This document shows positions 26,206 through 42,026 of a stretch of 64,000 bases of DNA, piece after piece. Location of the stretch: positions 74,184 to 138,183 of the forward strand of contig QQNF01000001.1 in the NCBI GenBank assembly GCA_003402705.1, in the 5' to 3' direction. A model generated the notes under the pieces. That model saw nothing but the letters and a program-made list of their open reading frames with translations, was not told where the DNA came from and did not search any database. This DNA is from Verrucomicrobiota bacterium (GTDB lineage: Bacteria > Verrucomicrobiota > Verrucomicrobiia > Verrucomicrobiales > V1-33). Within the stretch, counting starts at the first letter, position 1. Each line of letters opens with the position of its first letter. Both the position numbers and the translations under genes were made by a program.

Positions 26206-26313
26206 AGCATACGTATGCCACGACGGGATTGAGGCAACCCGTTCCGTACCCCGAGCGGAATCCCGGTGAGAAACCCGAAATCAACTGCTCCTTCCCATCC
26301 ATGCCGGAAACGC

Positions 26314-26590
26314 CGCAATTGGACAGACCTCTTCGCAGGGGCGCCTCGCCACCTCCAGAGGTCCCGCCACCTATCAGGCTCTCCCGCCCCAAGTCGACAC
26401 GCCCCTTCCAGCGTTCTCCCTGGCCACCCGGACCTCCAGCACCCCGCAATTGGACAAGGGACCTTCAGAAGCCTGGCCATCTGAACGATCCGCCTCCTCA
26501 TCCCGCAGGGATGACAGCATGAAGCCGGTGGTCGAGCTCGGCACGAGCGACACCACCAGAACGCCGCAATCGGACAGGCCTCTTCGCAGG
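26314..26590. repeat. Cluster of three copies of a dispersed ~26-nt repeat CGCAAT(T/C)GGACAG(G/A)CCTCTTCGCAGG
   Basis: Copies are at 26314-26339, 26445-26471 (diverged) and 26565-26590. Further copies are at 39287-39312 and, inverted, at 9436-9457. Confidence 0.65.
26473..26557. repeat. Left ~85-bp direct repeat flanking vapBC-1
   Basis: CTGGCCATCTGAACGATCCGCCTC(C)TCATCCCGCAGGGAT...GAAGCCGGTGGT(C/T)GAGCTCGGCACGAGCGACACCACC. About 90% identical by eye to 27338-27421. Confidence 0.75.
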
Positions 26591-26654
26591 GACCTACCGG
26601 CGCGAACCCGATGCCTTGCGCTTGCGCTGCATTGCGGCAATGCGATTATCCTGC

Positions 26655-26897
26655 ATGACTGTAGTCGTTCCCATCAGCAAGCGAGGCACCGTGACGCTGC
26701 CTCCTGCCCTTCGCCGCAGGTTTGGTCTCGAAACCGAGAACCCCTTGGTGATCATCGAAGAACGGGACGGGGAACTGGTTCTGCGCCCTGCCGTGGCAGT
26801 GGCCGTGCGCGATCTGCCGAAGGCGGTCGTCGAGCGGTGGATTCAGGAGGATGAAGCGGGAATGCGGGAATTCGAGGCAACGCCGCCGCCGCAATGA
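26655..26897 (+). CDS. vapB: AbrB/SpoVT-type antitoxin (VapB-like)
   Basis: MTVVVPISKRGTVTLPPALRRRFGL is an AbrB/MazE looped-hinge motif. Its stop overlaps the vapC ATG. Confidence 0.75.
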   Translation: MTVVVPISKRGTVTLPPALRRRFGLETENPLVIIEERDGELVLRPAVAVAVRDLPKAVVERWIQEDEAGMREFEATPPPQ

Positions 26898-27349
26898 TTC
26901 TATTTCTGGATACCAGTGTCCTTCTGGCCGCCGCTGGCTCGGAAACGGGCGCGTCCCGTTACGTCTGCACCCAAGGAGGGCCACGGCATGGATGGAGGCT
27001 CCTCACCTCAGGTTATTGCGTGCAGGAAACGCTGCGCAATCTGCCCAAACTCGGCTCCGGCGCGGCATTGGCCTGGACTACAGTTGTCGAACCGGTAATC
27101 GAAATCGTGGCGGATGTCGTGTCGCTAGATCAGGCGCTCGTCTTCCCCAAGGCCAAAGACAGACCAGTCGTCATTTCGGCTCTCGCGGCCCAAGCAGGCG
27201 TCCTGCTCACTCTCGACCGAACCGATTTCCACGCATCGCTCGGGCCCCAGCTCTACGGCATGGACATCCGCACCCCTGCCGACTTTCTCATCGAGCAGCG
27301 CCTCAAAGGAAGCATCTGCATCCGGAACCCCAGAGGTCTGGCCATCTGA
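26894..27349 (+). CDS. vapC: PIN-domain toxin (VapC-like)
   Basis: MILFLDTSVLLAAAG (first acidic PIN residue) and ...LLTLDRTDF... The last 4 codons and the stop lie inside the right flanking repeat. Confidence 0.8.
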   Translation: MILFLDTSVLLAAAGSETGASRYVCTQGGPRHGWRLLTSGYCVQETLRNLPKLGSGAALAWTTVVEPVIEIVADVVSLDQALVFPKAKDRPVVISALAAQAGVLLTLDRTDFHASLGPQLYGMDIRTPADFLIEQRLKGSICIRNPRGLAI

Positions 27350-27421
27350 ACGATCCGCCTCTCATCCCGCAGGGATCACCGGCTGAAGCCGGTGGTTGAG
27401 CTCGGCACGAGCGACACCACC
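27338..27421. repeat. Right ~85-bp direct repeat flanking vapBC-1
   Basis: Pairs with 26473-26557. Contains the hairpin CACCGGC-TGAA-GCCGGTG. Confidence 0.75.
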
Positions 27422-27517
27422 GGAAAACGCACCAAATTAAATCGCATGCCCGGCAGGGGTGCCGCCCTGAGCCCTCCAGCGGTCAGGCCACTCAACCGTT
27501 CTGTTCCTGATAGCGCT

Positions 27518-28381
27518 TCAGCGTCCCGATCCTTCTGCCGTGGAGGAAGATTTAGAAACCTTCGCTTCCGGGTGAAAATGACAGGGCGGAAACCCGTCGG
27601 GCAACTCCGTGATGATCACATCCACCGGCACCAGCACGCCATTCTCCGCCATCACCACATTGGCCGGATGCACATCCCACACGCCCAGGCAGCCGATCCG
27701 CCACGACGTGGAATCCTCATAACCGATTCCCTTCCAGCCCATCTGCACGAAACCCAGCGCCTTCATCCCCTCACTGATTTCCTCCATCGTGGCCCGACGG
27801 CCCCGCACATGGGGCTGGCTCGTCACCATGCGCCACCCGTCCGTTCCATCCCGCCAGATTCCGACCAGTTGGATGTCATCCTGAAAAAGATCATTCTGCC
27901 TCCTCAGTCGCTCGAAGTATTCCCGCGGCAACGCATTCCGCAGAGCAGGCCTGCCCTCCGCGTCCCAATCCACCGTATAACCAGCCAGCCCCGGCTTCGT
28001 GTACTTCAGCCAGCGTTCCGTTTCCGGATCGAAAATCAGATCATGCTCGCGGCCCCCCGCAGCGGCAGGCCCGGACGACTCCACAATCATCCCCTGTGCC
28101 TCGCACCACCGCCGGAATTGCCTCCACTGGCGTTCCGGCTCTTCCCAATCATCATCTTCACCGGCGTCCCCATCAAAATCGTCATCTGAGCATAGGCCTC
28201 CGCAGAGGTAGTCCTGTGCCCCGGCAAGCGTGCGATCCGCAGGGATTGCTTCTGTTGCTCCGTCATCGGGTCCACCCTGCCCCGCATCCCCACCATCCGC
28301 AAGATCCACCACCTCAAAAATCACGTCCCCCCCGATGTCCTCCATCGGCATCCCGGTCAGATCCACCACAGTCGCTTCCAC
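27518..28381 (-). CDS. Stand-alone kinase-like protein resembling the polyvalent-protein kinase domain, with an acidic N-terminal region
   Basis: GREHDLIFDPETERWLKYTKPG...YFERLRRQNDLFQDDIQLVGI...MVTSQPHVRGRRATMEEISEGMKALGF...VWDVHPANVVMAENGVLVPVD. GTG start at 28381. Confidence 0.45.
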   Translation of the reverse strand: MEATVVDLTGMPMEDIGGDVIFEVVDLADGGDAGQGGPDDGATEAIPADRTLAGAQDYLCGGLCSDDDFDGDAGEDDDWEEPERQWRQFRRWCEAQGMIVESSGPAAAGGREHDLIFDPETERWLKYTKPGLAGYTVDWDAEGRPALRNALPREYFERLRRQNDLFQDDIQLVGIWRDGTDGWRMVTSQPHVRGRRATMEEISEGMKALGFVQMGWKGIGYEDSTSWRIGCLGVWDVHPANVVMAENGVLVPVDVIITELPDGFPPCHFHPEAKVSKSSSTAEGSGR

Positions 28382-28640
28382 CGATCCCAGATACGCCCCT
28401 CGCCTGCCGCTCCGCCCGGCTGAGAATACTGCAATGCCGTGACCCGCTGCGCAGCGGTTCCTGATTCAAGCGCAACGCGACGTCCGGCACCTCCAGACTG
28501 CTCCAGAGCATCCCGTCCCACCTCAGGCACTTGCCATCCGCGTCGCTGAAGACAATTTCCATCCTGTCAGATTTGCTCCCTCCTCATGAGGTGCGGTCGT
28601 CCATCAGAACCACCTTTTCCAGCAATTTGTCCCGCTAGCG

Positions 28641-29684
28641 CTAAAATGCCGCAATGCGTTCGATGACCCAGAACATGGCCACGCTTCCGATCACATACGG
28701 TGGCACCAAATGAGCCCATCGCGGGAGCGGTAATGGCACCCGGCGGGCAAGTGCGGTAATCGCTAGGACGGCAGCAATGAAGGCAAGCTGGCCGAGTTCG
28801 ACGCCGACATTGAAGAAGAGCAGCGACAGCGGAATAGCGTGCTGGGGCAGGCCGACTTCGGTCAGCGCACCAGCGAAGCCAAGACCGTGGAGCAGGCCGA
28901 AGGTGAAGGCCACCACCCACGGCGCGCGCTCCGTGAGCCCCGGATTCCCGGCCCGGCTGCGGAGGATCTCCGCCGCCACAAAGACAATGCTCAGCGCGAT
29001 GCAGGCCTCGACCGGCGGACCTGGGACGTGGACCAAACCAAGCGTCGCTGCGGCTAGGGTCAGGCTGTGCGCGACGGTGAACGCAGTGATCGTTCCCACG
29101 AGCCGCCTCCAGCCTTTCACGAGCAGCACCAGCGCGAGCACGAAGAGCAGGTGGTCGATGCCGAGGAGAATGTGCTCGATCCCGAGCGCGGTATAAGTGC
29201 GCGCGACTTGCCAACCGGACGCCGCGGCGGCGATGATGACCGATGGTTCATCGGGTGTGGCGCGGAACGTTTGCGTGACGCCCTTCACGTCGGTCACGCG
29301 CACGAGAGCGTCGATCTTCGTCGAGGATAGTCCCTCGATGGCAATGCTCTGCCCATCAAGTCCCCCGGGACGCTGGATGCGCCAGCGTTCAATGTGCGCG
29401 CCGCCGGAAAACATCCCGCGCGGCTCACTGAGCTGACGCGCCTCGGCGGGGAACCGCACATAAAGCGCCAGCCGCATCTCCCCGTTCGCAGGCACCTTCC
29501 ACAGCACGTCGTAAGTCTCCGGGGCGGTCTCGCGCAGCTCGAGATACGCCGGCCGCACCTCATGCGCGAACCCAGATGTTAAGCACAAGAGGAAGAGAAG
29601 AATGGCACAGCAGGAAACCGAGAGAACGGAGCAGAAACGACCCTCCGTTCCCTCCTGTTCAAAATGCCTCGGATTGATCCTCAT
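28641..29684 (-). CDS. HupE/UreJ-family membrane protein
   Basis: HILLGIDHLLFVLALVLL...FTVAHSLTLAAATLG...GLLHGLGFAGAL...FNVGVELGQL. Its ATG overlaps the upstream stop (ATGA). Confidence 0.8.
   Translation of the reverse strand: MRINPRHFEQEGTEGRFCSVLSVSCCAILLFLLCLTSGFAHEVRPAYLELRETAPETYDVLWKVPANGEMRLALYVRFPAEARQLSEPRGMFSGGAHIERWRIQRPGGLDGQSIAIEGLSSTKIDALVRVTDVKGVTQTFRATPDEPSVIIAAAASGWQVARTYTALGIEHILLGIDHLLFVLALVLLVKGWRRLVGTITAFTVAHSLTLAAATLGLVHVPGPPVEACIALSIVFVAAEILRSRAGNPGLTERAPWVVAFTFGLLHGLGFAGALTEVGLPQHAIPLSLLFFNVGVELGQLAFIAAVLAITALARRVPLPLPRWAHLVPPYVIGSVAMFWVIERIAAF
29611..29661 (-). repeat. Operon motif copy 1 (inverted pair, overlaps the HupE signal-peptide codons)
   Basis: CAGGAAACCGAGAGAACGGAG ... 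CCCTCCGTTCCCTCCTGTTCA. The arms are imperfectly complementary. Confidence 0.55.
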
Positions 29685-30541
29685 TTCCCCGCGTCGGTCC
29701 CCACCTTTTGCTTCGGCCATTCGATGGTGACGGCATACTGCTTGAGCAGCTCGTCGAGAAACTTGCGGTTAGTCTCCGTGCGGCGCTCGCTCGCCCACTC
29801 GCGCTCCACCTGCGCACGTACCTCTTGCAGCGCGGGCACACGGCCTTCGGTGCGTTGCGCGATGAAGACAACATGCATGCCGAGGCCGGACGGCACCGGT
29901 CCGCACCATTCGCCCACCGGCAGCTTCGCCAGTTCCACGGCAAACTCCCTGCCAAAACTGCTCTCGATGCCACGCTGCGGTTCATCGGCTAGCGACGGAG
30001 GAAGCAGCGAGGGATCGCCGAGTTCGGAAGCGTCCGCCTGCGCGCCCTTCGCCTTCAGCTCCACCAGCATCTGCGCGGCGTCGGCGGCAAGTTTGTCGCC
30101 GCGTTTGTCCGCGTTGAGATACACCTGACGGAACGTGAGCCGCTGATCCTGACGAAACGCGTCCGCATGTTTCGCCAGATACGCCGCCAGCTCCTCCTCG
30201 GTGGGCTCGACGCCCGCGGCAAAATCGTCAGCGATGAATTCCATCTTCTGCTGGAGACGGCGACGGATGATCACGTCATTTTGATCCAGCCCCAGCTTCA
30301 TCGCCTCGCGCGCAAAGACTTCCTCACGGACGTATTGATCGATCAGCCCCTTGACCTCGTCGTCGTTCGGCGGGCGCTGCCAGGTGCGGGCGAACGTCGT
30401 GACCATGTGCTCGACCTGTCCGGGGCTGACGACGATCTGCTGCGGGTCGGTCTGCGGCCTGCGGTTCAGCAAGTGGTAACCGCCAAAGAGCGCCGCGCCA
30501 AGCAGGACGAAATGCAGCAGTGGCTCGCGGAGAAATTTCAT
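29681..30541 (-). CDS. Membrane-anchored parvulin-like peptidyl-prolyl isomerase (PpiC/Rotamase_2-like)
   Basis: N-terminal TM helix, a SurA-N-like helical region, and a C-terminal ...LPVGEWCGPVPSGLGMHVVFIAQRTEG... Confidence 0.55.
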   Translation of the reverse strand: MKFLREPLLHFVLLGAALFGGYHLLNRRPQTDPQQIVVSPGQVEHMVTTFARTWQRPPNDDEVKGLIDQYVREEVFAREAMKLGLDQNDVIIRRRLQQKMEFIADDFAAGVEPTEEELAAYLAKHADAFRQDQRLTFRQVYLNADKRGDKLAADAAQMLVELKAKGAQADASELGDPSLLPPSLADEPQRGIESSFGREFAVELAKLPVGEWCGPVPSGLGMHVVFIAQRTEGRVPALQEVRAQVEREWASERRTETNRKFLDELLKQYAVTIEWPKQKVGTDAGK

Positions 30542-30548
30542 GGGATTT

Positions 30549-30606
30549 GAACAGGAGGAAACGGAGAGGCAGAAAACAATGGCTCTGTTCCCTCCGTTGC
30601 CTCCTC
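30549..30606 (-). repeat. Operon motif copy 2 (inverted pair forming a 13-bp stem with one mismatch, 8 nt upstream of the PPIase ATG)
   Basis: GGAGGAAACGGAG (30554-30566) pairs with CTCCGTTGCCTCC (30592-30604). Confidence 0.6.
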
Positions 30607-30697
30607 TTGGATTGCGATTCTCATTGGTTTGCTCCCGGAAGGATCAGGCGGCTGATGCCGTCGGTGACCTTCAACTCATGGAAATTGACAGTCTTCA

Positions 30698-30727
30698 CCC
30701 TCCGTTCCCCCTGTTCCCTCCTGTTGA
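30698..30727 (-). repeat. Operon motif copy 3
   Basis: CCCTCCGTTCCCCCTGTTCCCTCCTGTTGA, directly after the stop of the 30730-31758 gene. Confidence 0.55.
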
Positions 30728-30729
30728 TT

Positions 30730-31758
30730 TCATGGTTTGTTGGCCGCGGCGCGGCAGGCTTTCAGGTACTCCTGGATCCTCCCGCGCGTCTCCGGAAGGA
30801 CCGGCTCGCCCGAGGCGAGCAGCGTTTGATAGTGTGCCGCCGCGCTCCAATCGCGCCATGCCGCGAGGTCGCGGGCGACGAGTCCGCTGAGCGGGCGCCG
30901 CTCGGCGAGGAACACCCGACAGGCGGCGAGAATGCGCGGACGCAGCCTGTCACTGGCCTCGCCCTGAACACCAAGCGCGGCGACCGCCGCCTGAATCTCC
31001 TCAAGCGTGCGGTCGCGGTCGCGGAGGTAATGGACCTCAAGCCACGCCACACCCTCGTCACCCTCGCGTTCGATGCGGGCAGTTAGCAGTGCGGCGAGGA
31101 GCGAAGCATCATTCGCTTTCCATGCGGCCTCGAGTTGCTCGTTGGCCTTCCGCGCGTCATCGGCGTCGCCGGACGCGCCGAGCAGCACGATCCACATCGG
31201 CTGCGCATAGGCCTGAGCCGGATCGGCGAGCCATGCACGGAGATTCTCCGCCTCGAGGCGCTGCGTCTTGAGCACGCGATAGGGCGCGCGCGCCCATGCC
31301 GCCCAGGCGCTCCTGGCGATGCGCGGATCGGGATGGCCGAGAAACGGACGAAAGGCCGACAGCCGTTCATTCCATTGCGCCTCCGTCACGGTCTCCGCGG
31401 CGGGCAGGTCGAGGATCGCTTTGAAGAACCCGGCGAACTGAATCCCCGACTCGCCCAGGCTGCTCCACGGCGCATCGACCGCCGCACGGGAAAGGATGAG
31501 TGTTCCCTTCCCATCAATGCTCGGCGCTTTCACGCGGACGCCCTTCAACGCCGCATCGCCTTTGATGACCGCATGGACTTCGAAGGTGCCCGCCTCCGTC
31601 AGGGCCGTCGCCACCACCACCTCGTGCGCCACCGACACTTCATCCGCCAACGTCGGCTTCTGCGGCACAACGCCCATGCAGATCGCACATCCCCACGAAA
31701 CCACCGCCGACAGGTGAAACGCAGCGACGAGAGTGAGGATGATGCGATTGCGGCTCAT
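30730..31758 (-). CDS. Secreted hypothetical protein (helical; CxxC close to the signal peptide)
   Basis: ATG at 31758. MSRNRIILTLVAAFHLSAVVSWGCAICMG... No family recognised. Confidence 0.55.
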   Translation of the reverse strand: MSRNRIILTLVAAFHLSAVVSWGCAICMGVVPQKPTLADEVSVAHEVVVATALTEAGTFEVHAVIKGDAALKGVRVKAPSIDGKGTLILSRAAVDAPWSSLGESGIQFAGFFKAILDLPAAETVTEAQWNERLSAFRPFLGHPDPRIARSAWAAWARAPYRVLKTQRLEAENLRAWLADPAQAYAQPMWIVLLGASGDADDARKANEQLEAAWKANDASLLAALLTARIEREGDEGVAWLEVHYLRDRDRTLEEIQAAVAALGVQGEASDRLRPRILAACRVFLAERRPLSGLVARDLAAWRDWSAAAHYQTLLASGEPVLPETRGRIQEYLKACRAAANKP

Positions 31759-31808
31759 CGGGAAACTTGAACAGTACCAAACAGAGTAAGCGGGATCGAG
31801 GATATCAT

Positions 31809-31836
31809 CTCTGTTCCCTCCGTTTCCTCCTGTTGA
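31809..31836 (-). repeat. Operon motif copy 4
   Basis: CTCTGTTCCCTCCGTTTCCTCCTGTTGA, between the DUF3604 stop (31841) and the next ATG (31758). Confidence 0.6.
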
Positions 31837-31840
31837 CGCT

Positions 31841-33631
31841 TCAGGGCGTGAACCAGATCGGCGAGGTCCACGCACGTTCCTGAATGGAAACCTGCACGCC
31901 GGCGGGTGCTTTCACTCCGTAGCGCGCGGCGTCGTAGGTGCTCCAGCGCGGTGTCGGGATTTCCAGAACGCGGGCGTAATAAAGGGCGCGGAGTGATGGG
32001 TCGAAATCGGGATCGGTCCACACATGGGAGAGTTCCGCCGCGCCGATCGAATTCGCGAAGGTGGCCTTCTTCTCATCCACCGTGTTGCCCACGGGCGGCA
32101 ATTTTCCGTCAGCGCCGGGTTGCCGGTCGCCCGACCAGACGACGTCATAAATCTTCTCGTGCGTCTTCCCGGACTTGTCCACCCAGCCCTTGATGATCTG
32201 GATACGATCGAGGTTCGCTCCGTCAGGATCCTTCATCGCCGAGACGATGAATTTCGGAGATTTACCCTCCGGCGCTGACTTCAAATCACCGCCCATCGGC
32301 ACACCGCCAGCATAGGCCGCTTTCGCCATGCCAGGCTTCTTGACGATGGCTGCGTCATAGTCCCAGCCACCGAAGAATCTCGCTGTGATGCGCGTGCCGC
32401 TCGTCGCAAAGGGTTCCTTGCGGTGCATCCCATCCCAGATGCCCTCGCGTGTGTTCGCATCGGCCCAGACACCCGTCAGCGCGCCGGGCGTGAGATCTTT
32501 GCCTTTGATCCAGCCGCCCACTTCGCTGGTCATGCGGCGCTCGGCGGTCCCGTCAGCTGCCCCGTGACTGCCAGCCATGAAATTGTCCTCGGCCGTATTC
32601 GAAGGCGTGCCGTTGTGAGTGTCGGTCCCGCCCACGAAGCCGTATTTGAACGGGTTCACGCCTAGCGCTTGCTCGACAGCGAGTCCTTTGATCACCCCGT
32701 CGCGCACAAAATTCCCCTTGGAGAAAGCACGGCCGCTGTAGTCCTGGATCGAATCGGCATTCTCAAAGTCGGCGAATTCATCAGTGGGCCAGAATGTCCG
32801 ATGCACCTCGGAGTTGCCCTTGATCTGCATCATCTCGACGAGCGGCTCGAAGTGGCTCCGCGTCTCGGCATACGCACGGTCGATCGGCTTCCCCGCGCCG
32901 TCCACATCGGCAAACATCATCCCTTTGCTCGCATTGGAATTGTGAGGAATCGCAAGCACCTTCATGCCCCGCTTTTCGAGACCGGCCATCCACGCCCACA
33001 ATCCGTCCTCGCGACCGATGTCGATGTAGCTCATTACCTTGTCAGGTACGTTCGTGTCGCGGAAGAACACGTTGCGGTGCAGGTTGCCGCCCTTGGGCGC
33101 GCCACTCCATTCAAACGCCGGGATAGTCGTGAACTCGCCGGGCTTATAGTGCTTCGCGGCCGCCTCCATCACGACTTTCCAGCCACTCTTCTCCGTCTCG
33201 ATTCCCGCGTAGAAGGGCGGGTGCTGCGGATTGCCGCCCCGGTTGCTCTTGACCACATACTCGAGAAACCACCTCTCGCGCTCCTCAATGCTCGTCAGTC
33301 CGCGCAACTGCTGGATCAGCTCCTGGTTGTATCCGGGAGCCCCCTCTACCAGCGTCGAATACATCTCGCCGAGATACTCCGCATGATCCGTGACCGCCGC
33401 CCAGTCGAGCGGACGGCGCAGCTTGAATTTCACCCCGTTCACCTCGACCTCCCCGCCCTTCGCGAAAAGATAGGCGTCGGAAGGCGTCAGCCGCGCGCCG
33501 CCGATATACGCGTCGAGCGAGTAGGCGGTGTGAACATGCTGCTCGCCGAAGAACGCACGCCGGTCCTGAGCATCGCCAGCGGTGGGGATCCAGGCGCAGA
33601 GCGCGGCGAGGAATGCTGACGTAGTTCTCAT
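31841..33631 (-). CDS. DUF3604 protein (PHP-like putative metallohydrolase), secreted
   Basis: ATG at 33631. FFGEQHVHTAYSLDAY...AAVTDHAEYLG...IPHNSNASKGMMF... Paralogous to 34319-36277. Confidence 0.8.
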   Translation of the reverse strand: MRTTSAFLAALCAWIPTAGDAQDRRAFFGEQHVHTAYSLDAYIGGARLTPSDAYLFAKGGEVEVNGVKFKLRRPLDWAAVTDHAEYLGEMYSTLVEGAPGYNQELIQQLRGLTSIEERERWFLEYVVKSNRGGNPQHPPFYAGIETEKSGWKVVMEAAAKHYKPGEFTTIPAFEWSGAPKGGNLHRNVFFRDTNVPDKVMSYIDIGREDGLWAWMAGLEKRGMKVLAIPHNSNASKGMMFADVDGAGKPIDRAYAETRSHFEPLVEMMQIKGNSEVHRTFWPTDEFADFENADSIQDYSGRAFSKGNFVRDGVIKGLAVEQALGVNPFKYGFVGGTDTHNGTPSNTAEDNFMAGSHGAADGTAERRMTSEVGGWIKGKDLTPGALTGVWADANTREGIWDGMHRKEPFATSGTRITARFFGGWDYDAAIVKKPGMAKAAYAGGVPMGGDLKSAPEGKSPKFIVSAMKDPDGANLDRIQIIKGWVDKSGKTHEKIYDVVWSGDRQPGADGKLPPVGNTVDEKKATFANSIGAAELSHVWTDPDFDPSLRALYYARVLEIPTPRWSTYDAARYGVKAPAGVQVSIQERAWTSPIWFTP

Positions 33632-33633
33632 GA

Positions 33634-34257
33634 TTAGTTGCCGATAGGTTTTGGTTCCGGGAACTTCCACGAGCCGTCGAGGATCTCCTTGCGTGGCCGA
33701 TAGAGGCGCACCGTGTAATTCCAGCCCTTCGTGATGGGGATGTAGTTCAACTGCTTCGGGTCGCCTCCGAAATGGATCGTAATGGTGCCATCGCTGTCCT
33801 TCTTCGCCGTGATGTTGTTGAACGAATAGGCTTTGGCCGGGTCCACGAGCGTACGGAAAGCAACCTGGACATAGCGCGTGCCAATCTTCTCGCGGGTCAG
33901 CACGTACTCGCCGGGTTCGTATGCCACGGCCTTGATGTAATGGTCCTCGTTGATCACAACCATGGACTGGAATCGCTTCCCGGTGTCCGGTTTCACGATC
34001 GTCACCGGCTGCGTCAGGTCGAACACCCCCCACGAAAAGAGCGTGTCGCGATTCACACGGACGACGACGTGTCTGTCAATCGGAGCAGGCTCACGGACGT
34101 GTCCGAATTTGCCGAACATCCCCTCGTCCACCTTCTTCTTGAAGTTGAAATCGGACTCCGCGCGCAGGTAGTTGTCGGGGGTGACGGGTTCTGCAGCATT
34201 GACTGCGACAGCCGCGAAACCGGTCAGGGTGGCTATAGCCATTGTGGTTGGTTTCAT
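33634..34257 (-). CDS. DUF1214-like secreted protein
   Basis: Signal peptide. The C-terminal ...GWNYTVRLYRPRKEILDGSWKFPEPKPI resembles the DUF1214 ending. Confidence 0.5.
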   Translation of the reverse strand: MKPTTMAIATLTGFAAVAVNAAEPVTPDNYLRAESDFNFKKKVDEGMFGKFGHVREPAPIDRHVVVRVNRDTLFSWGVFDLTQPVTIVKPDTGKRFQSMVVINEDHYIKAVAYEPGEYVLTREKIGTRYVQVAFRTLVDPAKAYSFNNITAKKDSDGTITIHFGGDPKQLNYIPITKGWNYTVRLYRPRKEILDGSWKFPEPKPIGN

Positions 34258-34286
34258 GGTCTTGATGGTGGAACTTGAACAGGAAA

Positions 34287-34313
34287 CTCTGTTCTCTCCG
34301 TTGCCTCCTGTGA
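34287..34313 (-). repeat. Operon motif copy 5
   Basis: CTCTGTTCTCTCCGTTGCCTCCTGTGA, 30 nt upstream of the ATG at 34257. Confidence 0.6.
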
Positions 34314-34318
34314 AACCC

Positions 34319-36277
34319 TCACGGATTGTACCAAATGGGCGAGGTCCACGCGCGCTCCTGGTGTTTCATCGGCACCCCGGCCGGCATTTTGATCCCGTAG
34401 CGGACGCAGTCGTAGGCGGTCCAGCGCGGAGATGGGATCTCGATGACGCGGGTGTAGTAGAAGGCGGGCTGCGCCGGATCGAAGTCAGGGTCGATCCATT
34501 GCGCGGCGAGGTCGGGGTCGCCGATGGTGTTGGTCCACGTAGCGTTGGCAACGTCCACGGTGTCGCCCACGGGCGGGAGTTTGCCGTCCGCGCCAAGCGG
34601 GCGCTTGTCGGCGTCGCCCCAGGCGACCTCGTAAACCTTCTCGTGTGTCTGGCCGTCCTTGTCGAGCCAACCCTTGATGATCTGGATGCGGTCGAGATTC
34701 GCACCGAGCGCGTCCTTCATTGCGGAGAGGAGGAAGGTCGGTGCCTTCGCGCCGTCCGGACGTTTCGGCATGTCCCCACCCATCGGCACGCCTTTGGCAT
34801 AACCGACCGACGGCAAATAGCGGGTCTTCGCATCTTCCGCCGAATAGTCCCAGCCGCCGAAGAAACGCGCGGTGATGCGGGATCCGGAGGTGGCGTAACA
34901 TTCCCTGCGCATCATCGCATCCCAGAGCGCTTCGCGCGTGTTTTCCTTCGCCCAAACCGCAGCGTAGCCCGCAGCGGTGTAATGCCACGTGTAGCGCGTC
35001 TTGCCAAAACCGACCTTCGAGACGTGCTCCCAGCGGTTCGTGTTAGGCTCCTGAAACGGCAACTTGCCGTAGAAATTGTCCTCCTCAATCGAGGTTAGCG
35101 AGTTGTGCACGTCCGTGCCGCCGATCATCCCGATCTTGAAGGGATTCGTGCCGAGTTTCTGCTCCAGCATGAGACCATTCATCAGCGCGCCGCGGATGAA
35201 GCTGAAAGGCCGCATCTCCGGCGTGGCGGGTTTGTCCGTGAGCGAGAGATTGCCATACTCCCAGCCGGCGACGCCGAAGTCCGAGAACTCGTCGTTTGGC
35301 GAAAGCGTCGGGTGGGTCTCGCTGTTGCCCTTGGTCTGCATCACTTCGTGCAGCGGCTCCCAGCGGGCCCGGCGCTTCGCGTAGTCGGAGGTGAGCGGGT
35401 TGCCCTTGAAATCGGTGAGGGCAAACATCAGGCCGTTCGAAAGGTTGCCGTTGTGCGGAATGGCTAGCATCTTGCCGCCGGTCTTCTTTTCGTAAGCATC
35501 CATCCACTTCCAGAGATCCTCGGCGTCTTCGCTCTGCCACGCGGAAAAGGGCATGATCTGGTCAGCCTTGTCCTTGCCATCACGGAAGAGAATGTTGCGG
35601 TGAAGGTTGTTGCCGCCTGGGACCGAAGTCCACTCGTAGGCGATCATCGCGGTGAAGCGGCCGGGATCATTGTATTTCTCGGCGGTCGCCGTGTATTTCT
35701 GCCAGACCGATTTCATGATCGGGCCGACCGTCTTCGGATCTTTAATGAGCGGGGGGAGCGTCCCGTTGCCCTGTCGGACGACGATGTCGCCGGTAGCATC
35801 CGCCGCCGCCTTGCCGCCGTCCTTCATGGCCTTGTTCCAGCTCGCTATCACTTCATCCTTCATGAAGGCTTCGTTGCCTTCAAATACCTGATACATGATC
35901 CCGAGCCCCTCGGCGTGGTCGCTGATGCACAGGAAATCGAGCGGCCGCGAAAGCCTCGCCGGAATTCCCGTCGAGGAGACGACCTCCTCCCCCTTCGCAA
36001 AACGATAGGCGTCTTCCGGGCTGAGCCGGTCCCCCGCCATGAAGGCATCGCCGGAATTCGCGGTGTGGTGATGCGTGTCGCCAAAGAAGACCCGCGTCGG
36101 GAAATCCCGCTGCGCGTACGCCGAGTAGGCCTTCTTGTCGCCCGCCGGATGATGGGCGATCGGGCCCTCCTCTCCCTCCGTGGCAACGCCCGATTTCGTA
36201 GATTCTTGAGAGAAGACGGCGGGCGGACCGGCCGCGAACGCCAGCAAGAAGGACAGAAAAGTTAGTGCGGTTTTCAT
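34319..36277 (-). CDS. DUF3604 protein, second paralog, secreted
   Basis: FFGDTHHHTANSGDAF...LCISDHAEGLG...IPHNGNLSNGLMF... The C-terminal ...ERAWTSPIWYNP parallels ...ERAWTSPIWFTP in the first copy. Confidence 0.8.
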   Translation of the reverse strand: MKTALTFLSFLLAFAAGPPAVFSQESTKSGVATEGEEGPIAHHPAGDKKAYSAYAQRDFPTRVFFGDTHHHTANSGDAFMAGDRLSPEDAYRFAKGEEVVSSTGIPARLSRPLDFLCISDHAEGLGIMYQVFEGNEAFMKDEVIASWNKAMKDGGKAAADATGDIVVRQGNGTLPPLIKDPKTVGPIMKSVWQKYTATAEKYNDPGRFTAMIAYEWTSVPGGNNLHRNILFRDGKDKADQIMPFSAWQSEDAEDLWKWMDAYEKKTGGKMLAIPHNGNLSNGLMFALTDFKGNPLTSDYAKRRARWEPLHEVMQTKGNSETHPTLSPNDEFSDFGVAGWEYGNLSLTDKPATPEMRPFSFIRGALMNGLMLEQKLGTNPFKIGMIGGTDVHNSLTSIEEDNFYGKLPFQEPNTNRWEHVSKVGFGKTRYTWHYTAAGYAAVWAKENTREALWDAMMRRECYATSGSRITARFFGGWDYSAEDAKTRYLPSVGYAKGVPMGGDMPKRPDGAKAPTFLLSAMKDALGANLDRIQIIKGWLDKDGQTHEKVYEVAWGDADKRPLGADGKLPPVGDTVDVANATWTNTIGDPDLAAQWIDPDFDPAQPAFYYTRVIEIPSPRWTAYDCVRYGIKMPAGVPMKHQERAWTSPIWYNP

Positions 36278-36302
36278 GGTTCGTTTTGGGCGGCGCTCCG
36301 CC

Positions 36303-37085
36303 TCACTTCGGGAAAAGCATCTTAACGGTGAAGCGGATCGTGTCTTCCGGCCCGACAGTCTTATCAGCGAAGTCGTGCTCGTATTGCAGACCGAACTGCA
36401 CCGGAAAGTCTCCGATCTTCTGCATTTTGGAAATCTTCATCCCCAGGGGCAGGCTGCTCCAGCGGTCGGTCTCCCAGTCCCAGGCGAAACTCATCTCGGA
36501 GCTGCCGACAAACCATCCCTCGCCGAGCCCGAAGTTGAAGATCGGCTGGATGACGCTGGCGTTGACCTTGTCGCCGCCGATGTTGAAAAGGTTCTGGTTG
36601 AAGAGGCCCCAGATAAGCTTGTCCCGGCGGGCAGTGAATCCGATCGCCGGACCCAACGCCCACTCGTCTGCCCCGCGATCATCACCTCCCGTCGGAAGCA
36701 ACGCGACCGGTCCCAATCCCCAGCGTCCCCAGTCCTCGTTGAAGACGACCAGGTCGAAAAGCGTTATGTCCGACAATCCCGGGTCGTACGACGGGTGATC
36801 AGTTAGGAAAGGCATCGTCGCCCGGAAAATGTGCCTCCACTCCCCAGTTTGGAAGGGAATCACCGGTCTCAGAACGACAGTGTTCGCGCTCTCGTCCCCG
36901 GGCAGATGATGAAACGAGGCATTGTACCAGTCAGCGATCTGCAGCGACATCAGTGACGCGGTCGGATCCTCCGCCGCCTGGCCGAGGGATTGCCCACCCG
37001 GTTCACCTTCATCGGCACGGCTCATTCCCGAGAGCCATCCGAGCGTCGCCATCGCGACACACAGCAGGATTGGATTCAGATTCAT
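36303..37085 (-). CDS. Putative outer-membrane beta-barrel protein
   Basis: Signal peptide, an alternating beta-strand pattern, and a C-terminal aromatic residue two positions from the end (…KMLFPK). Confidence 0.5.
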   Translation of the reverse strand: MNLNPILLCVAMATLGWLSGMSRADEGEPGGQSLGQAAEDPTASLMSLQIADWYNASFHHLPGDESANTVVLRPVIPFQTGEWRHIFRATMPFLTDHPSYDPGLSDITLFDLVVFNEDWGRWGLGPVALLPTGGDDRGADEWALGPAIGFTARRDKLIWGLFNQNLFNIGGDKVNASVIQPIFNFGLGEGWFVGSSEMSFAWDWETDRWSSLPLGMKISKMQKIGDFPVQFGLQYEHDFADKTVGPEDTIRFTVKMLFPK

Positions 37086-37134
37086 AGGAGGCGATGCGGT
37101 AGAATGTTAGTAATCGTGCCTTGAAGATCCAGGG

Positions 37135-38079
37135 TTAGAACTTCAAGATGAATTTCAACCACATGTAGTCGCCCTGGAGACGGTTCTTCGTCTCCATCTC
37201 ATGCAGCCACTTCAGTTCAGTCACCGTGTCGAGCTTTCCAAGCTTTCCGGCAAAGGAGACGACCGGTCCAAGCCCCGCCGTCCGTCCCTCAAAATCCCCG
37301 AGAAACGCTCCCGCCCCGCTGTCTCCGCTAACCTGTTCGTACCAGTATCCATTGATCCCCACCCCCGCGAGCCCGCCGAAAATCGGGAAATGCTGTGCCA
37401 GCGTGCCATCGGCGTGGAACTGCGCCCCAGACCGGTAGTTCGTGTCCTCGTTCTCCGTATTCAGACTCACGCCGCTGAACAGCGAGGCCTCGATCCCGTT
37501 TTCCTTGCCGAAATACATCAGCCCGACGGTTGGTTCGAAGGTCCAGAAATTCTTCCCCGTGTTCGCGAGCCGTCCCACCTCGTAGTCGCCAGTCGGCACA
37601 TAAATGCCGAGGCGGGCGCTCACGTTGAAGTCCTCGTTGCACCGGTAGTTGAACATCAGCGGCATCAGGACGATGTCGCCCAGCCCCTCAAGACTGCTGG
37701 ACCGCTGAAAAGGGCCGACCCTCGCCGAAACATCCATCGAAACCATCGGGATCGTCATACTCATCGCGTAACTGAGCCTGTCGCCGAAATCACCCGGCGG
37801 ACGCCAGAGCAGCGACAGCCCGTTCGCCCATGAACTCGCATCCACCCCGGCCGCATTCAGTCCGGCGATCGGAATCCGCGCACCGTTCACATCGATCGAA
37901 CCGTCGTAGTAGAGCAGATTGTAGCGCGCAATGAAGGTCTCCGTCGGCGGCACCACATCGGCAAACGAGGACATCGAACCGGGGAGATAGTGGCCGCTGC
38001 CGCCCTCCTCAGCTCGTGAGACGGTTGTCAGAATTCCGCCAAGGATGGCGGCAACTGTTAGGTGAATTCGCTGGTTCAT
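37135..38079 (-). CDS. Outer-membrane channel of the MetA-pathway/phenol-degradation-like family
   Basis: Signal peptide, then GSGHYLPGSMSSFADVVP..., and a terminal ...WLKFILKF ending in Phe. Confidence 0.65.
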   Translation of the reverse strand: MNQRIHLTVAAILGGILTTVSRAEEGGSGHYLPGSMSSFADVVPPTETFIARYNLLYYDGSIDVNGARIPIAGLNAAGVDASSWANGLSLLWRPPGDFGDRLSYAMSMTIPMVSMDVSARVGPFQRSSSLEGLGDIVLMPLMFNYRCNEDFNVSARLGIYVPTGDYEVGRLANTGKNFWTFEPTVGLMYFGKENGIEASLFSGVSLNTENEDTNYRSGAQFHADGTLAQHFPIFGGLAGVGINGYWYEQVSGDSGAGAFLGDFEGRTAGLGPVVSFAGKLGKLDTVTELKWLHEMETKNRLQGDYMWLKFILKF

Positions 38080-38116
38080 GAAACATGCGGAACCCGGTCT
38101 CCGGACAGCGACCCGT

Positions 38117-38128
38117 GCATGGCCATGC
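38117..38128. promoter_or_regulatory. Perfect 12-bp palindrome GCATGGCCATGC in the divergent LysR/operon intergenic region
   Basis: It lies 38 nt upstream of the operon's first ATG (38079) and upstream of the LysR start. Candidate operator. Confidence 0.3.
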
Positions 38129-38251
38129 CCTTGGACACCCCGCGACAGCTTTCCTTTCGATCACCCGGCCCACCGGAAGAAAATGAAGAGCGTTGCTGCT
38201 CGGCGTATTGTTAGGTTCAGTCTCATGTTGACCGAGGAAACCGAGCATGAA

Positions 38252-39187
38252 ATGGGAATTGAATTCATCGGATGCATAGCTTTTGGTGATGCCGTGTCGA
38301 ATTTGAACTTGCAGCGACTGAGCCACTTCCTCGCCGTCGTGGATTCCGGCAGCCTCGGGCGTGCTTCCCGCGTGGTGAAACTGAGCCAGCCCGCCCTGAC
38401 CAAAAGCATCCGCAAGCTCGAGAGCGAGTTGGGCTTCGCGCTTTTCGACCGCGCCGGTTCCCTCGAACTGACCGGCCTCGGACGGGAGTTTCTCGACCGG
38501 GCCCGCCACCTCGTCGGACAAGCCGGTGACCTCGAGCGAGAGACATGCCTCCTGCGAGGTGGCCAGATCGGTACCCTGAAAGTCGCCTGCGGTGCCACCA
38601 TGGCCGAGACCCACCTCGCCCCTGCCCTCGCAACCCTCGTCCAGCGCCATTCCGGCCTGCGCGTCGAGGCCCGCGTCGGGGACTTCCGCGAATTGCCCGC
38701 CTTGCTCAGAAACCGGCAGATCGACTTGGGGGTCGGCGAATATTCCGCGATCGAACTCGAGTCCGACCTGAAGATCTTCCCCCTCGCGCCTCAGGAGGTC
38801 GTGTTTGTCTGCCGACCCGGCCACCCCCTCGACCGCCGCCCGGGCCGTCTCGTCACCCTCGCCGAGTTCTTCGCTTACCCGCTCGTCGCCACCGGCCTGC
38901 CCGATTGGGCCGTGCGCTGGCTGCGTCAGCACCACCCCGAAAAGGCAGGGAGCGAGAGTCTCACCGTCACCTGCAATCACTTTCCCCTCCTCAAAACCGT
39001 CATCGCCCGGACCGACGCCGTCTCCGGCATGCCGGAAGGCGTCGCCCGCCCCGAACTGGAGGCCGGCACCCTCATCCGCATCCGCCTCGAATCCCCGCCC
39101 CTCGTCAACCAGGCCGGCATCATTCATTTGAATGACCGCACCCTCTCTCCCGCCGCCCGGCTGTTGATGGAGGTCATGCTCGGGTGA
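38252..39187 (+). CDS. LysR-family transcriptional regulator (start uncertain: ATG 38225/38252 or GTG 38294)
   Basis: LQRLSHFLAVVDSGSLGRASRVVKLSQPALTKSIRKLESELGFALFDR is a LysR wHTH. Divergent from the DUF3604 operon. Confidence 0.85.
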   Translation: MGIEFIGCIAFGDAVSNLNLQRLSHFLAVVDSGSLGRASRVVKLSQPALTKSIRKLESELGFALFDRAGSLELTGLGREFLDRARHLVGQAGDLERETCLLRGGQIGTLKVACGATMAETHLAPALATLVQRHSGLRVEARVGDFRELPALLRNRQIDLGVGEYSAIELESDLKIFPLAPQEVVFVCRPGHPLDRRPGRLVTLAEFFAYPLVATGLPDWAVRWLRQHHPEKAGSESLTVTCNHFPLLKTVIARTDAVSGMPEGVARPELEAGTLIRIRLESPPLVNQAGIIHLNDRTLSPAARLLMEVMLG

Positions 39188-41286: not shown

Positions 41287-41314
41287 AAATGAGGAAAAGA
41301 AAAATTTGGCGCGG

Positions 41315-41919: not shown

Positions 41920-42026
41920 GGACAAAAGAAAGCGCGCGCCGTGCCGGAACACGCCGCGCGCTGGATTGAATCTCAGACCCGGACCTCAGCTGCCCGCAGG
42001 CAACCTCCATCCAAGTCTCACCTCCG

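Follow-up and report, generated by a model that had tools for sequence, protein, structure and literature searches.

A frameshifted PolyVal-type minimal kinase gene of Verrucomicrobiota, remnant of a mod-kinase-res operon and predicted partner of ATP-dependent restriction

Gene model of the split kinase locus

Within the 64,000-nucleotide stretch of Verrucomicrobiota DNA analysed here (the window), two overlapping open reading frames lie on the minus strand, one of 287 aa with a GTG start (27518-28381) and one of 82 aa with an ATG start (28314-28562). Comparison with homologous loci shows that they are one gene of 347 codons, split by a single extra G. This disrupted PolyVal-type minimal kinase gene spans 27518-28562 on the minus strand, and its 347 codons are counted after the removal of one G. 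The lesion is a +1 insertion in a GGGG run at 28396-28399 (minus strand), which divides the gene between two frames; when one G is deleted from this run in the minus-strand reading, a continuous frame results (MEIVFSDADG...SRAERQARAYLGSVEATVVDL...). At the split site five homologous loci without the extra G have GCGA-AGGCG where the window has GCGAGGGGCG, and the additional G is absent from every homologous locus compared. Homologs of the window kinase are 326-351 aa long and share the N-terminus MEIVF..., one of them (P0001) being 92% identical. The corrected translation matches both P0001 and P0196 across the frameshift site; the latter, a metagenomic fragment, is identical to the corrected protein at 75 of 77 positions and stays in frame through the split site. 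Eleven genes are common to the window and locus L001, and the kinase gene is the sole frame-split one among them in the window. As read, the gene is either a pseudogene or the product of a sequencing error, in other words a freshly inactivated copy or a homopolymer error. A promoter and terminator scan around it gave nothing above shuffled expectation. For the annotation of the window, this means one frameshifted gene instead of two, with relics of mod and res on its flanks.

The original prediction gave both ORFs their correct coordinates and offered two explanations for the shorter one, a separate small partner or the real N-terminus displaced by a frameshift. The second is borne out, since homologs read through the site and removal of the G restores the frame; the first falls, the 82-aa ORF being the start of one 347-codon gene, and with it the idea that the 287-aa protein is the native product. 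That there are two true genes here, or a programmed or phase-variable frameshift yielding an 82-aa partner and a 287-aa kinase, is very improbable. Both ORFs are open in the window, and the variant at locus L054 encodes a kinase of 271 aa whose start Met occupies the position of residue 11 of the 287-aa ORF; an N-terminally shortened kinase can thus exist in nature. However, residues 1-55 of the 82-aa ORF match the N-terminus of all full-length homologs, its final 27 residues are out-of-frame read-through without a homolog, and the P0196 allele, 97% identical, is in frame. A small partner protein was rejected on these grounds. Regulation by frameshifting was likewise rejected, because the G-run is unconserved: homologs read GAAGG in its place and have thus kept no slippery sequence. 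Four consecutive G would in any case be short for phase variation.

Architecture of the corrected protein and its relation to Kinase-PolyVal

The corrected protein has three parts, namely an N-terminal alpha/beta domain of ~70-80 aa, an acidic linker and a kinase core of ~170 aa without a C-lobe. The N-terminal domain (28322-28562, minus strand; corrected residues ~1-80) is the part in which the frameshift falls. In the AF2 model of P0001 it is made of strands 2-6, 12-15 and 62-67 and helices 26-33 and 46-58 (pLDDT 85-96), and its conserved residues are W15, D16, G17, W20, N33 and H43. It is restricted to the long form of the family and is missing from the ~227-aa forms; a search with this domain alone returned just three short fragments, all from the same family. 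The linker (28070-28321, minus strand) is mostly disordered, with pLDDT below 50 at P0001 residues 83-105 and 123-136, and includes a short conserved helix, ALAGAQDYL, and a long helix, PERQWRQFRRWCEAQ, that runs into the kinase core. Over 90 residues it carries 26 D/E against 4 K/R. The very acidic N-terminus noted earlier for the 287-aa ORF is real (27 D/E against 5 K/R in residues 1-95). The linker is usually the fastest-evolving part of the protein, with a dN/dS of 0.36 against L001 and 0.51-0.73 in remoter pairs, but only 0.14 against L011.

The kinase core (27557-28069, minus strand) was delimited by the PF18762 match, invariant columns, a core model and Foldseek. Its key codons, all on the minus strand, are those of the Glu in GGREH (28046-28048), the Lys in WLKYTKP (28004-28006), the Gln in TSQP (27815-27817), the catalytic Asp and the Asn in WDVHPAN (27674-27676 and 27659-27661) and the Mg-binding Asp in PVDVI (27620-27622). 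In P0001 numbering and across 43 sequences, K186, D296, H298 and N301 never vary, and the conservation of D314 is at least 90%; key core columns are also invariant in a set of 27 sequences. E172 (GGREH) is invariant and directly precedes strand 173-178, and Q249 (TSQP), at least 90% conserved, lies at the end of strand 243-250. The window ORF keeps K126, D236, N241 and D254 (287-aa ORF numbering). The motifs on which the original prediction relied (GREHDLIF, WLKYTKPG, VTSQPHVRG, VWDVHPANVV and LVPVD) are all present, and structure prediction, which it had proposed as a way to locate the catalytic residues, placed the Lys, the Asp, the Asn and the Mg-binding Asp in the kinase core. The spacings are 5 from Asp to Asn and 13 from Asn to Asp, equal to those of D166, N171 and D184 in PKA. 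The protein terminates ~30 residues past the Mg-binding Asp, a region for which AF2 shows only short strands (pLDDT 82.7 for the full model and 91.7 for the core). Conserved columns and predicted models together show that the intact protein would possess a full phosphotransfer site (the strand-3 Lys, the Glu ahead of strand 2, the D-x4-N motif and, 13 residues past the Asn, the Mg-binding Asp) in a core predicted to lack the substrate-binding C-lobe.

These traits are those of Kinase-PolyVal (PF18762; Iyer, Burroughs, Anand, de Souza & Aravind 2017, J Bacteriol, PMC5512222). According to that description, the domain has lost the C-lobe, a Glu precedes its strand 2, a Gln occupies the last strand of its N-lobe, and it is abundant in Verrucomicrobia; all four features are present in the window family too, and ATP-binding and phosphotransfer residues are kept in both. 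The published description further gives the domain an insert that separates the conserved His and Asp of phosphotransfer. The PF18762 profile aligns with residues 152-257 of the window ORF at 24.4 bits (E 3.3e-5), below its gathering score of 27 bits, and P0001, at 26.0 bits, is just under the same cutoff. At E<=0.01, 10 of 43 family members match, the best at 4.5e-8. A profile search with the family itself retrieved 1607 representative clusters at E<=1e-3, including proteins of 1.3-3.2 kaa (E 1e-26 to 1e-35) for which PF18762 itself gives 34-73 bits at the position matched. When the AF2 model (pLDDT 82.7) was compared by Foldseek with BFVD, a comparison of predicted structures on either side, it matched a 'Large polyvalent protein associated domain' protein (E 2.7e-13), a 198-aa 'PolyVal Ser/Thr/Tyr kinase' (E 7.9e-7, TM 0.58 on the target) and a further protein at E 9.3e-7. 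Against the PDB, neither the full nor the core-only model gave a Foldseek match at E<=1e-3 (best 0.018 and 0.013); the top matches, all sub-significant, are nearly all protein kinases, a pattern that is consistent with a kinase fold, short of proof. A PDB sequence search with the kinase gave no match, and none of the PADLOC, PHROGs and NCBIfam models matched it. Profile and model comparisons place the window protein in Kinase-PolyVal at the family level. The originally proposed match to this domain therefore stands for the family, on profiles, structures and active site, while the window protein taken alone falls short of the cutoff (24.4 vs 27 bits).

The catalytic loop D-V-H-P-A-N of the window kinase resembles the D-L-H-P-G-N loop of APH and choline-kinase enzymes. 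This likeness, the presence of amicoumacin kinase among the weak PDB matches and the many copies that sit beside housekeeping genes would fit an enzyme akin to aminoglycoside, choline or sugar kinases that phosphorylates small molecules in metabolism or resistance, its restriction-modification (R-M) neighbourhood in relatives being coincidental. We regard such a role as improbable: Pfam gives no match to APH, choline kinase or related families, Kinase-PolyVal being the only family matched, the top structural matches are overwhelmingly protein kinases, and the large helical C-lobe that forms the substrate pocket of APH-type enzymes is missing in the window family. Embedding of the kinase in R-M operons in 9 of 34 lineages, far over the assumed chance rate (see below), also speaks against coincidence.

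Operon remnants in the window and operon context in relatives

A PolyVal domain is normally found within a giant multi-domain protein of a phage or conjugative element, whereas the window gene is stand-alone and chromosomal and possesses its own N-domain and acidic linker. A polyvalent architecture was not found: the corrected product is a stand-alone protein of 347 aa, and its gene is surrounded by housekeeping genes on the yidC side, a metal-related cluster and a TA pair, with no phage or conjugation genes nearby. In the accessible part of PMC5512222, stand-alone PolyVal kinases are mentioned for Bacteroidetes alone and R-M linkage is not mentioned.

Both flanks of the kinase gene retain pieces of an operon. 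On one side a relic of the 5' end of type III res (27486-27537, minus strand) overlaps the kinase stop codon; its own start codon has been lost. It encodes RIGTLKRYQEQ, compared with M(K/R)IKTLKRYQEQ at Res N-termini, and its DNA is collinear with Mod-K-Res loci for ~50 nt and diverges afterwards; these first ~50 nt of res are kept in the window, L001 and L011. On the other side lie ~23 nt from the 3' end of a type III mod gene (28563-28585, minus strand), with a TGA stop 4 nt before the kinase ATG. This relic, GAGGAGGGAGCAAATCTGACAGG, aligns with ...GGGAGGGGGCAGGCCTGACAGG of L045 and L002, and the homology between the window and L002 stops at 28583. Flanking Mod and Res genes are absent from the window, which has just the ~23 nt of mod and the ~50 nt of res. 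In L002 and L054, which belong to the window's clade, mod is internally deleted, its 42 N-terminal codons being fused to ~10 C-terminal ones at an identical junction, and L054 still retains an intact res of 834 aa. In the NJ tree the orphan clade is nested within Mod-K-Res lineages. We have thereby shown that the window kinase descends from a three-gene type III operon, mod-kinase-res, and that mod and res were deleted in the window lineage, leaving stubs on each side of the kinase. The earlier view of a solo chromosomal copy is right in that the gene is stand-alone and chromosomal, but it is solo only secondarily, as a leftover of mod-kinase-res.

Since the deletion of mod and res, the upstream junction with yidC has been repeatedly rearranged. 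A block of ~10.8 kb between the kinase gene and yidC (28586-39420) is missing in the closest relatives: window positions 39421-47279 match L001 7909-1 and positions 26473-28564 match L001 10008-7919. The block contains HupE/UreJ, a PpiC-like protein, two DUF3604 proteins and a MetA-type porin. The kinases of the window and L001 differ by 35.5 nonsynonymous and 42.5 synonymous changes, corresponding to a dN/dS of 0.23 (p 6e-9 vs neutrality). Decay has occurred repeatedly in the orphan clade: the window copy is frameshifted, the reading frame in L103 is broken independently, and L054 has lost the N-domain. This argues that selection weakens after the loss of the R-M partner.

In the nearest non-orphan relatives, the kinase gene is tightly packed between those for a type III methyltransferase (Mod) and a helicase-nuclease (Res). 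Such Mod-K-Res loci (L005/L012, L013/L014, L009/L016 and L045) have gaps of 4-15 nt or overlaps, the kinase overlapping res in an ATGA. The Mod matches PADLOC MTase_III at 8.9e-113. The Res has a Pfam ResIII/DEAD match, a weak REase_III match (7.5e-6) and, visible in the sequence of its C-terminus, a nuclease-like YPDF...ADPK motif; NCBIfam and PDB sequence searches with Res gave no match. Shorter relatives have their kinase gene between hsdR and hsdM, as HsdR-K-HsdM(-HsdS) loci (L007, L022, L034, L030, L055, L057, L064 and L093/L095). These relatives of the window kinase thus lie at the centre of a mod-K-res (type III) or hsdR-K-hsdM (type I) operon, unlike the giant polyvalent proteins, and the original link to genetic-conflict systems is supported by this embedding.

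Context classes were set by tblastn against reference R-M proteins, because simple ORF calling failed at several high-GC loci; 'none' means that no homolog of those references was found. Among the 34 lineages with readable flanks, the kinase is embedded in an R-M operon in nine (binomial p ~2e-8 against a chance rate of 2%, a rate which is assumed, not measured) and has no recognisable R-M neighbour in 22. The non-embedded copies neighbour, among others, sulfatases, pectate lyase, PSD1/DUF1501 and AdoHcyase. With 22 of 34 lineages lacking an R-M neighbour, the kinase therefore cannot be an obligate R-M subunit. Two candidate contexts were discarded: L025, taken for type I from its gene sizes, gives PSD1, SASA and pectate lyase in Pfam, and a PLD protein upstream of L045, considered as a defence nuclease, is a cardiolipin synthase. 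No paper linking Kinase-PolyVal to R-M operons was found among open-access papers and bioRxiv, nor one describing the mod-kinase-res or hsdR-kinase-hsdM arrangement, which appears to be new.

Predicted role beside restriction enzymes

We consider it probable, taking all parts together, that the window carries a frameshifted gene for a ~347-aa PolyVal minimal kinase, a remnant of mod-kinase-res whose product is predicted to be the kinase partner of ATP-dependent restriction. The intact product probably phosphorylates proteins at the expense of ATP, either in concert with ATP-dependent restriction enzymes or as a back-up to them. It would act with the type III Mod2Res and type I HsdR2M2S complexes, and the N-terminal domain of the long form may dock it to the type III enzyme. 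In the mechanism that we prefer, protein phosphorylation would either act as a gate on the helicase-nuclease subunit or mount a back-up response to blocked restriction, and the kinase would keep some autonomous value once the R-M genes are lost. The 'defence or anti-defence effector' of the original prediction corresponds to a role that we infer.

The kinase may instead be an autonomous single-gene defence or abortive-infection effector that lodges in R-M operons without needing them, senses infection and, like phage-triggered kinases, modifies host or phage proteins by phosphorylation. Many solo copies occur in unrelated contexts, the orphan lineage has been under purifying selection after the loss of mod and res, and independent defence genes within type I operons are an established pattern, e.g. 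TgvAB and PrrC (PMC11411939, PMC12707154, bioRxiv 10.1101/2024.01.29.577857). On the other hand, a protein of 170-230 aa without a C-lobe leaves little space for a sensor. The overlap with res (ATGA) and the fixed position between R-M genes, kept across lineages with just 50% identity, suggest that the genes are translated together and inherited as one unit. Moreover, the identities of Mod, Res and kinase drop roughly in parallel; the Mod and Res of L005 and L009 are ~68% identical, and the kinases of these loci are 73% and 50% identical to the window ORF. The repeated decay in the orphan clade also weighs against independence from the R-M genes. An autonomous effector seems possible but rather unlikely.

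Slightly less likely still is an anti-restriction or establishment factor of mobile-element origin, which would switch off helicase-nuclease subunits by phosphorylation, delay restriction until a new host genome is methylated and, as an orphan, blunt other restriction systems. The domain is shared with the giant polyvalent proteins that phages and conjugative elements are proposed to deliver along with their DNA as a means of neutralising host defences (PMC5512222). In R-M operons of both type I and type III the kinase always adjoins the SF2 motor subunit, and its linker is strongly acidic. Against this origin, all 32 genome loci are on chromosomal contigs of Verrucomicrobiota with no adjoining conjugation or phage genes noted, viral contigs yielded no close relative in a scan that used exact peptide patterns and is hence a weak negative, and the target is purely hypothetical.

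The reading as a kinase partner of restriction can be tentatively extended. PolyVal-type minimal kinases may be the integral third component of a hitherto unrecognised, kinase-coupled class of R-M systems of Verrucomicrobiota, the type III ones built as mod-kinase-res and the type I ones as hsdR-kinase-hsdMS. Phosphorylation would gate the motor of these systems or fire a back-up; the same enzyme would be used offensively in polyvalent proteins, possibly against the same restriction targets, and the gene in the window would be a fossil left by one of these R-M systems. If true, this coupling of kinase and restriction would also explain the same domain in mobile elements. If the kinase controls or backs up ATP-dependent restriction, phosphorylation would join the known regulation of classical R-M. 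Kinase-PolyVal has so far been known only computationally, as a predicted part of giant phage and conjugative-element proteins, and no assay, substrate or phenotype of the domain came to light in a search of open-access literature and bioRxiv. The stand-alone forms of 230-350 aa are small and soluble-looking, have high-confidence models and would be convenient for a first biochemistry of this domain.

Other defence systems offer partial parallels. PglW (Pgl/BREX type 2) and MAD6 (MADS) are protein kinases encoded in one operon with a methyltransferase-based defence, as in the window's relatives (PMC12839542). These enzymes, for which the NCBIfam models NF033442 and NF047741 exist (PglW/MAD6-type kinases), are large and Hanks-type, possess a full C-lobe and carry additional nuclease or sensor domains, whereas the window kinase has no C-lobe and no specific sequence relationship to them; their partners are BREX and MADS rather than classical type I/III R-M. 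PrrC in EcoprrI and TgvAB in the type I system of Vibrio cholerae VPI-2 are also located between the restriction and modification genes of ATP-dependent R-M systems and share the idea of a guardian or of a second, complementary defence line (PMC12707154, PMC11411939). However, PrrC is an anticodon nuclease and TgvAB a GmrSD-like type IV enzyme, while the window family is a predicted kinase. The phage T7 gp0.7 type is a small conflict protein kinase that phosphorylates many host proteins, cited by Iyer et al. as a functional precedent (PMC5512222); it is phage-encoded and without sequence kinship beyond the superfamily, whereas the window gene is on a host chromosome.

The TA cassette was correctly located beside the kinase gene, to which it is convergent. 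It consists of an AbrB/MazE-fold, VapB-like antitoxin gene (26616-26897, plus strand; PF04014 32.5 bits against a cutoff of 24.7, E 8e-8; TIGR01439 29.2 bits) and a VapC-like PIN-domain toxin gene (26894-27349, plus strand; PIN_3 E 0.015, below cutoff; RSP_2648-family PIN E 9e-4), the latter with a visible N-terminal LDTSVL motif and a start that overlaps the antitoxin stop by 4 nt. A kinase fold near a TA cassette recalls the HipA/HipBST toxins, but the window kinase has no HipA_C match in Pfam and AbrB-PIN is a complete pair of its own, found beside the kinase only in the window/L001/L002/L003/L011 clade. Because there is no consistent linkage outside this closest clade, the vapBC neighbourhood, once offered as a functional clue, is uninformative on kinase function. 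A coupling of the two was rejected and the cassette looks like an incidental neighbour, clade-specific, convergent and flanked by its own direct repeats of ~103 nt.

Gene model, family and predicted fold of the kinase

The two overlapping minus-strand ORFs of the kinase gene, one of 287 aa with a GTG start (27518-28381) and one of 82 aa with an ATG start in a different frame (28314-28562), lie as originally described. Homologs in public data are 326-351 aa long, and their N-termini (MEIVF(S/T)NAEGK...) are the same as the start of the 82-aa ORF, running on into the 287-aa ORF. Deletion of one G from the GGGG at 28396-28399 (minus-strand reading) yields a single open frame of 347 codons (...SRAERQARAYLGSVEATVVDL...); at this site the window reads GCGAGGGGCG versus GCGA-AGGCG in five homologous loci, and the metagenomic fragment P0196, identical to the corrected window protein at 75 of 77 positions, is in frame across this site. 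Based on the homolog starts, the one-G correction, P0196 and the other loci, sequence comparison identifies the 82-aa ORF as the displaced N-terminus of the kinase gene, and its final 27 residues as out-of-frame read-through. Of the two options in the original prediction, the frameshifted N-terminus is thus retained; the separate small partner is abandoned, as this ORF begins like the homologs and belongs to one 347-codon frame.

In a Pfam search, the window ORF had one match, Kinase-PolyVal (PF18762; E 3.3e-5, 24.4 bits versus a 27-bit cutoff), spanning model positions 57-156 only; searches of NCBIfam, PADLOC, PHROGs and PDB sequences with the window kinase gave no match. The assignment, below cutoff for this ORF alone, is however solid at the family level by sequence: PF18762 is matched by 10 of 43 aligned relatives (best E 4.5e-8), and the family profile recovers 1607 representative clusters at E<=1e-3 (827 at E<=1e-10), including proteins of 1.3-3.2 kaa with the domain internal (E 1e-26 to 1e-35). 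Four giant proteins were tested on PF18762: at the matched position three of them reach 34-73 bits, and P0114 scores 20 bits, under the cutoff. The domain family itself is already known. Five giant proteins with the kinase domain (P0114, P0117, P0122, P0128 and P0137; 1.7-2.7 kaa) have no further Pfam match; P0137 is an OppD/F-like ABC ATPase fused to the Kinase-PolyVal domain.

AlphaFold2 models were obtained for P0001, an intact full-length homolog 92% identical to the window protein (pLDDT 82.7, pTM 0.78), and for the window kinase core (pLDDT 91.7). In P0001, a small alpha/beta domain (residues 1-80; conserved W15-D16-G17, W20, N33 and H43) is followed by a mostly disordered acidic linker (residues ~81-168; 26 D/E versus 4 K/R, with two conserved helices, one short and the other long) and by the kinase core (residues ~169-335). 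E172 (GGREH), K186 and T188 (W-x-K-Y/F-T-K-P) and D296-V-H298-P-A-N301 are invariant in 43 sequences, and conservation is at least 90% for Q249 (TSQP) and D314 (P-x-D-V-I); the catalytic Lys and Asp residues sought in the original prediction are thus located at K186 and D296, with D314 as the Mg-binding Asp. The Asp-to-Asn and Asn-to-Asp spacings, 5 and 13, are as in canonical protein kinases (catalytic loop and DFG Asp). The chain ends ~30 residues past D314 and therefore has no C-lobe; alignment and model together show a predicted complete phosphotransfer site on a kinase core lacking this lobe.

Searched against predicted structures of viral proteins, the full-length model hits a protein labelled 'Large polyvalent protein associated domain' (E 2.7e-13 over 302 aligned columns), a 'PolyVal Ser/Thr/Tyr kinase' of 198 aa (E 7.9e-7) and a 1475-residue segment of a phage protein that carries the annotation 'Type I restriction enzyme' (E 9.3e-7). 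Structure prediction thus agrees with the PolyVal assignment at the level of these viral models, but the models have no significant match in the PDB (best E 0.013-0.018). Almost all of the top 50 PDB entries are protein kinases, and the predicted core appears closer to these than to kinases of small molecules, a view that Iyer et al. also put forward for polyvalent-protein kinases (PMC5512222). The same paper defines the polyvalent-protein kinase by loss of the C-terminal subdomain, an intact active site, a Glu that precedes strand 2, a Gln in the final strand of the N-lobe and frequent occurrence in Verrucomicrobia (Iyer et al. 2017, PMC5512222). The defining features given there are seen in the kinase studied here, and all 32 genome loci retrieved are from Verrucomicrobiota.

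Restriction-modification context of the relatives

The long form, with its N-terminal domain, occupies the central position in mod-kinase-res operons (type III methyltransferase, kinase, helicase-nuclease) of four lineages (L045, L005/L012, L013/L014 and L009/L016), where the kinase protein is 50-75% identical to the window ORF and genes are separated by 4-15 nt or joined by an ATGA overlap. Mod matches the PADLOC type III methyltransferase (E 8.9e-113); Res matches Pfam ResIII/DEAD, carries a visible C-terminal YPDF...ADPK nuclease-like motif and matches type III Res models weakly. In at least six lineages, the short form (~227 aa, without the N-terminal domain) lies between the type I genes hsdR and hsdM(-hsdS), with HsdR partners from two families of only ~30% mutual identity. 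Further copies have a gene for an MmeI-like enzyme or for a PLD-helicase-DUF3427 protein nearby.

Clustering of the kinase cores at 85% identity gave 53 lineages, 34 of them with readable flanks. Homolog neighbourhoods were examined, as originally suggested: nine of the 34 lineages are embedded in R-M operons, three more have an R-M-like gene within 4 kb, and 22 have no recognisable R-M gene. The embedded fraction, nine of 34, greatly exceeds chance expectation (p ~2e-8, at an adjacency rate of 2% that is assumed, not measured). Given this embedding and the many solo copies among ordinary neighbours, the kinase is recurrently, but not obligatorily, R-M-linked.

PglW and MAD6 are already known as kinases of methylation-based defence systems, and PrrC and TgvAB as genes embedded in R-M operons. 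A limited literature search returned no paper in which a PolyVal-type kinase takes the central position in a type III or type I R-M operon, and PADLOC (2023) has no model for this kinase; as the searchable literature was limited, we regard the mod-kinase-res and hsdR-kinase-hsdM arrangements only provisionally as undescribed.

In L035/L067 (L035 4767-7931), a PLD-nuclease/SF2 helicase/DUF3427 protein of 1054 aa is encoded two genes downstream of a short-form kinase, as a helicase-nuclease partner distinct from type I and type III. An ADP-ribosylglycohydrolase and a PycTM (Pycsar effector-like) gene are found just upstream of mod-kinase-res in L005 (676-2209), and the kinase copy of L033 (1029-2105) directly follows an ADP-ribosylglycohydrolase.

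Decay of the orphan clade and candidate roles

The window copy was predicted to be a solo chromosomal gene. It is indeed not flanked by an intact mod or res, but the sequence marks this copy as the relic of a degraded mod-kinase-res operon: the last ~23 nt of mod, stop codon included, and the first ~50 nt of res, overlapping the kinase stop, persist. The res remnant (RIGTLKRYQEQ, versus the Res start M(K/R)IKTLKRYQEQ) is shared with L001 and L011, and sequences diverge beyond it. In L002 and L054, the kinase is directly preceded by a short ORF that fuses the first 42 mod codons to the last ~10; the junction (EKAL|(K/R)FGLGRG) is identical in the two, so that both go back to one ancestral internal deletion. 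L054, with a 90% identical kinase, retains a complete 834-aa res. A neighbour-joining tree nests this orphan clade inside the Mod-K-Res lineages. As a damaged relic, the window copy alone is of modest interest.

Window and L001 kinases differ by 35.5 nonsynonymous and 42.5 synonymous changes (dN/dS 0.23; p 6e-9 against neutrality), and the gene thus still evolved under constraint after the loss of mod and res. Damage has nevertheless recurred. The window frameshift falls within the N-terminal domain; L103 (442-1624), which carries the same mod stub as L002 and L054, has an independent frame break near residue 147 and is called as separate 90-aa and 149-aa genes; in L054 (578-1647), residues 1-70 are cleanly deleted between two GACCTGACnGGGATG copies, leaving a 271-aa kinase with its original start context and the intact res downstream (the mod stub ORF is called there as 82 aa, only ~52 codons being mod-derived). 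Of the parts of the kinase, the core has persisted best, and the N-terminal domain is the most dispensable after mod has been lost. The kinase gene is the only frame-split gene among the 11 common to the window and L001; since the remaining shared region is clean and other clade members are independently damaged, we lean slightly towards a real mutation rather than a homopolymer error.

We propose that the protein would be an active ATP-dependent kinase acting on proteins. In the R-M operons an SF2 motor gene is always adjacent, several loci show translational coupling, and the kinase is inherited as a unit with Mod and Res, which suggests that it may act with ATP-dependent restriction enzymes; the N-terminal domain that the type III form has in addition may be a docking module. 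Three candidate roles stand side by side. The kinase might gate the restriction subunit, for self-control or establishment, or, in analogy to PrrC (PMC12707154), might serve as a back-up where restriction is blocked. It might instead be an independent effector merely lodging in R-M operons, for which there are cited precedents (PMC11411939; bioRxiv 10.1101/2024.01.29.577857). The repeated decay in the orphan clade favours dependence on the R-M partner, and the purifying selection seen in this lineage speaks for some autonomous value of the kinase.

Neighbourhood of the window copy

Kinase and toxin-antitoxin pair (26473-28564) are 91% identical to L001, and window 39421-47279 (from yidC, yidD, rnpA and rpmH on) shares 94% identity with the adjoining part of L001. 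In L001, L003 and L004, a spacer of 27 nt (7894-7920 in L001) is all that separates yidC from the kinase gene, and L011 has the same neighbours at a contig end. In the window, 10.8 kb of unrelated genes (28586-39420; HupE/UreJ, PpiC-like, two DUF3604 and a MetA-type porin) intervene; in L002, a different 6-kb insert (1657-7601) holds an MmeI-like type IIL R-M enzyme, a Hanks-type kinase and a MazE gene. The junction, empty in three loci and filled differently in two, is thus a swap hot spot.

The original prediction took the adjacent vapBC as a functional hint. An AbrB/MazE-type antitoxin (26616-26897, plus strand; above the Pfam cutoff) and a PIN protein (26894-27349, plus strand; below cutoff, with an LDTSVL N-terminal motif) plausibly form a vapBC-like pair. 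However, we found no reason to link the cassette functionally to the kinase: it is convergent to the kinase gene, has its own repeats and accompanies the kinase in the closest clade only.

The cassette is bracketed by a ~103-nt direct repeat (26459-26561 and 27324-27425; 87-91% identical), within whose left copy the window/L001 homology ends (26473). A 34-nt sub-element occurs three times (26311-26344, 26562-26595 and 39284-39317), once next to the yidC end, and the repeat may be a REP/MITE-like element mediating local rearrangements. In the inserted block, a CT-rich motif of 27 nt, CTCTGTTCCCTCCGTTGCCTCCTSTTG, occurs four times (30583-30609, 30700-30726, 31809-31835 and 34287-34313), mostly between genes, with one copy inside a predicted ORF. 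In L002 (2231-7161), the MmeI-like enzyme adjoins the 418-aa Hanks-type kinase, which has weak NCBIfam matches to PglW and the MADS kinase MAD6. The two form the second, unrelated case in this neighbourhood of a kinase paired with a methylation-based system.
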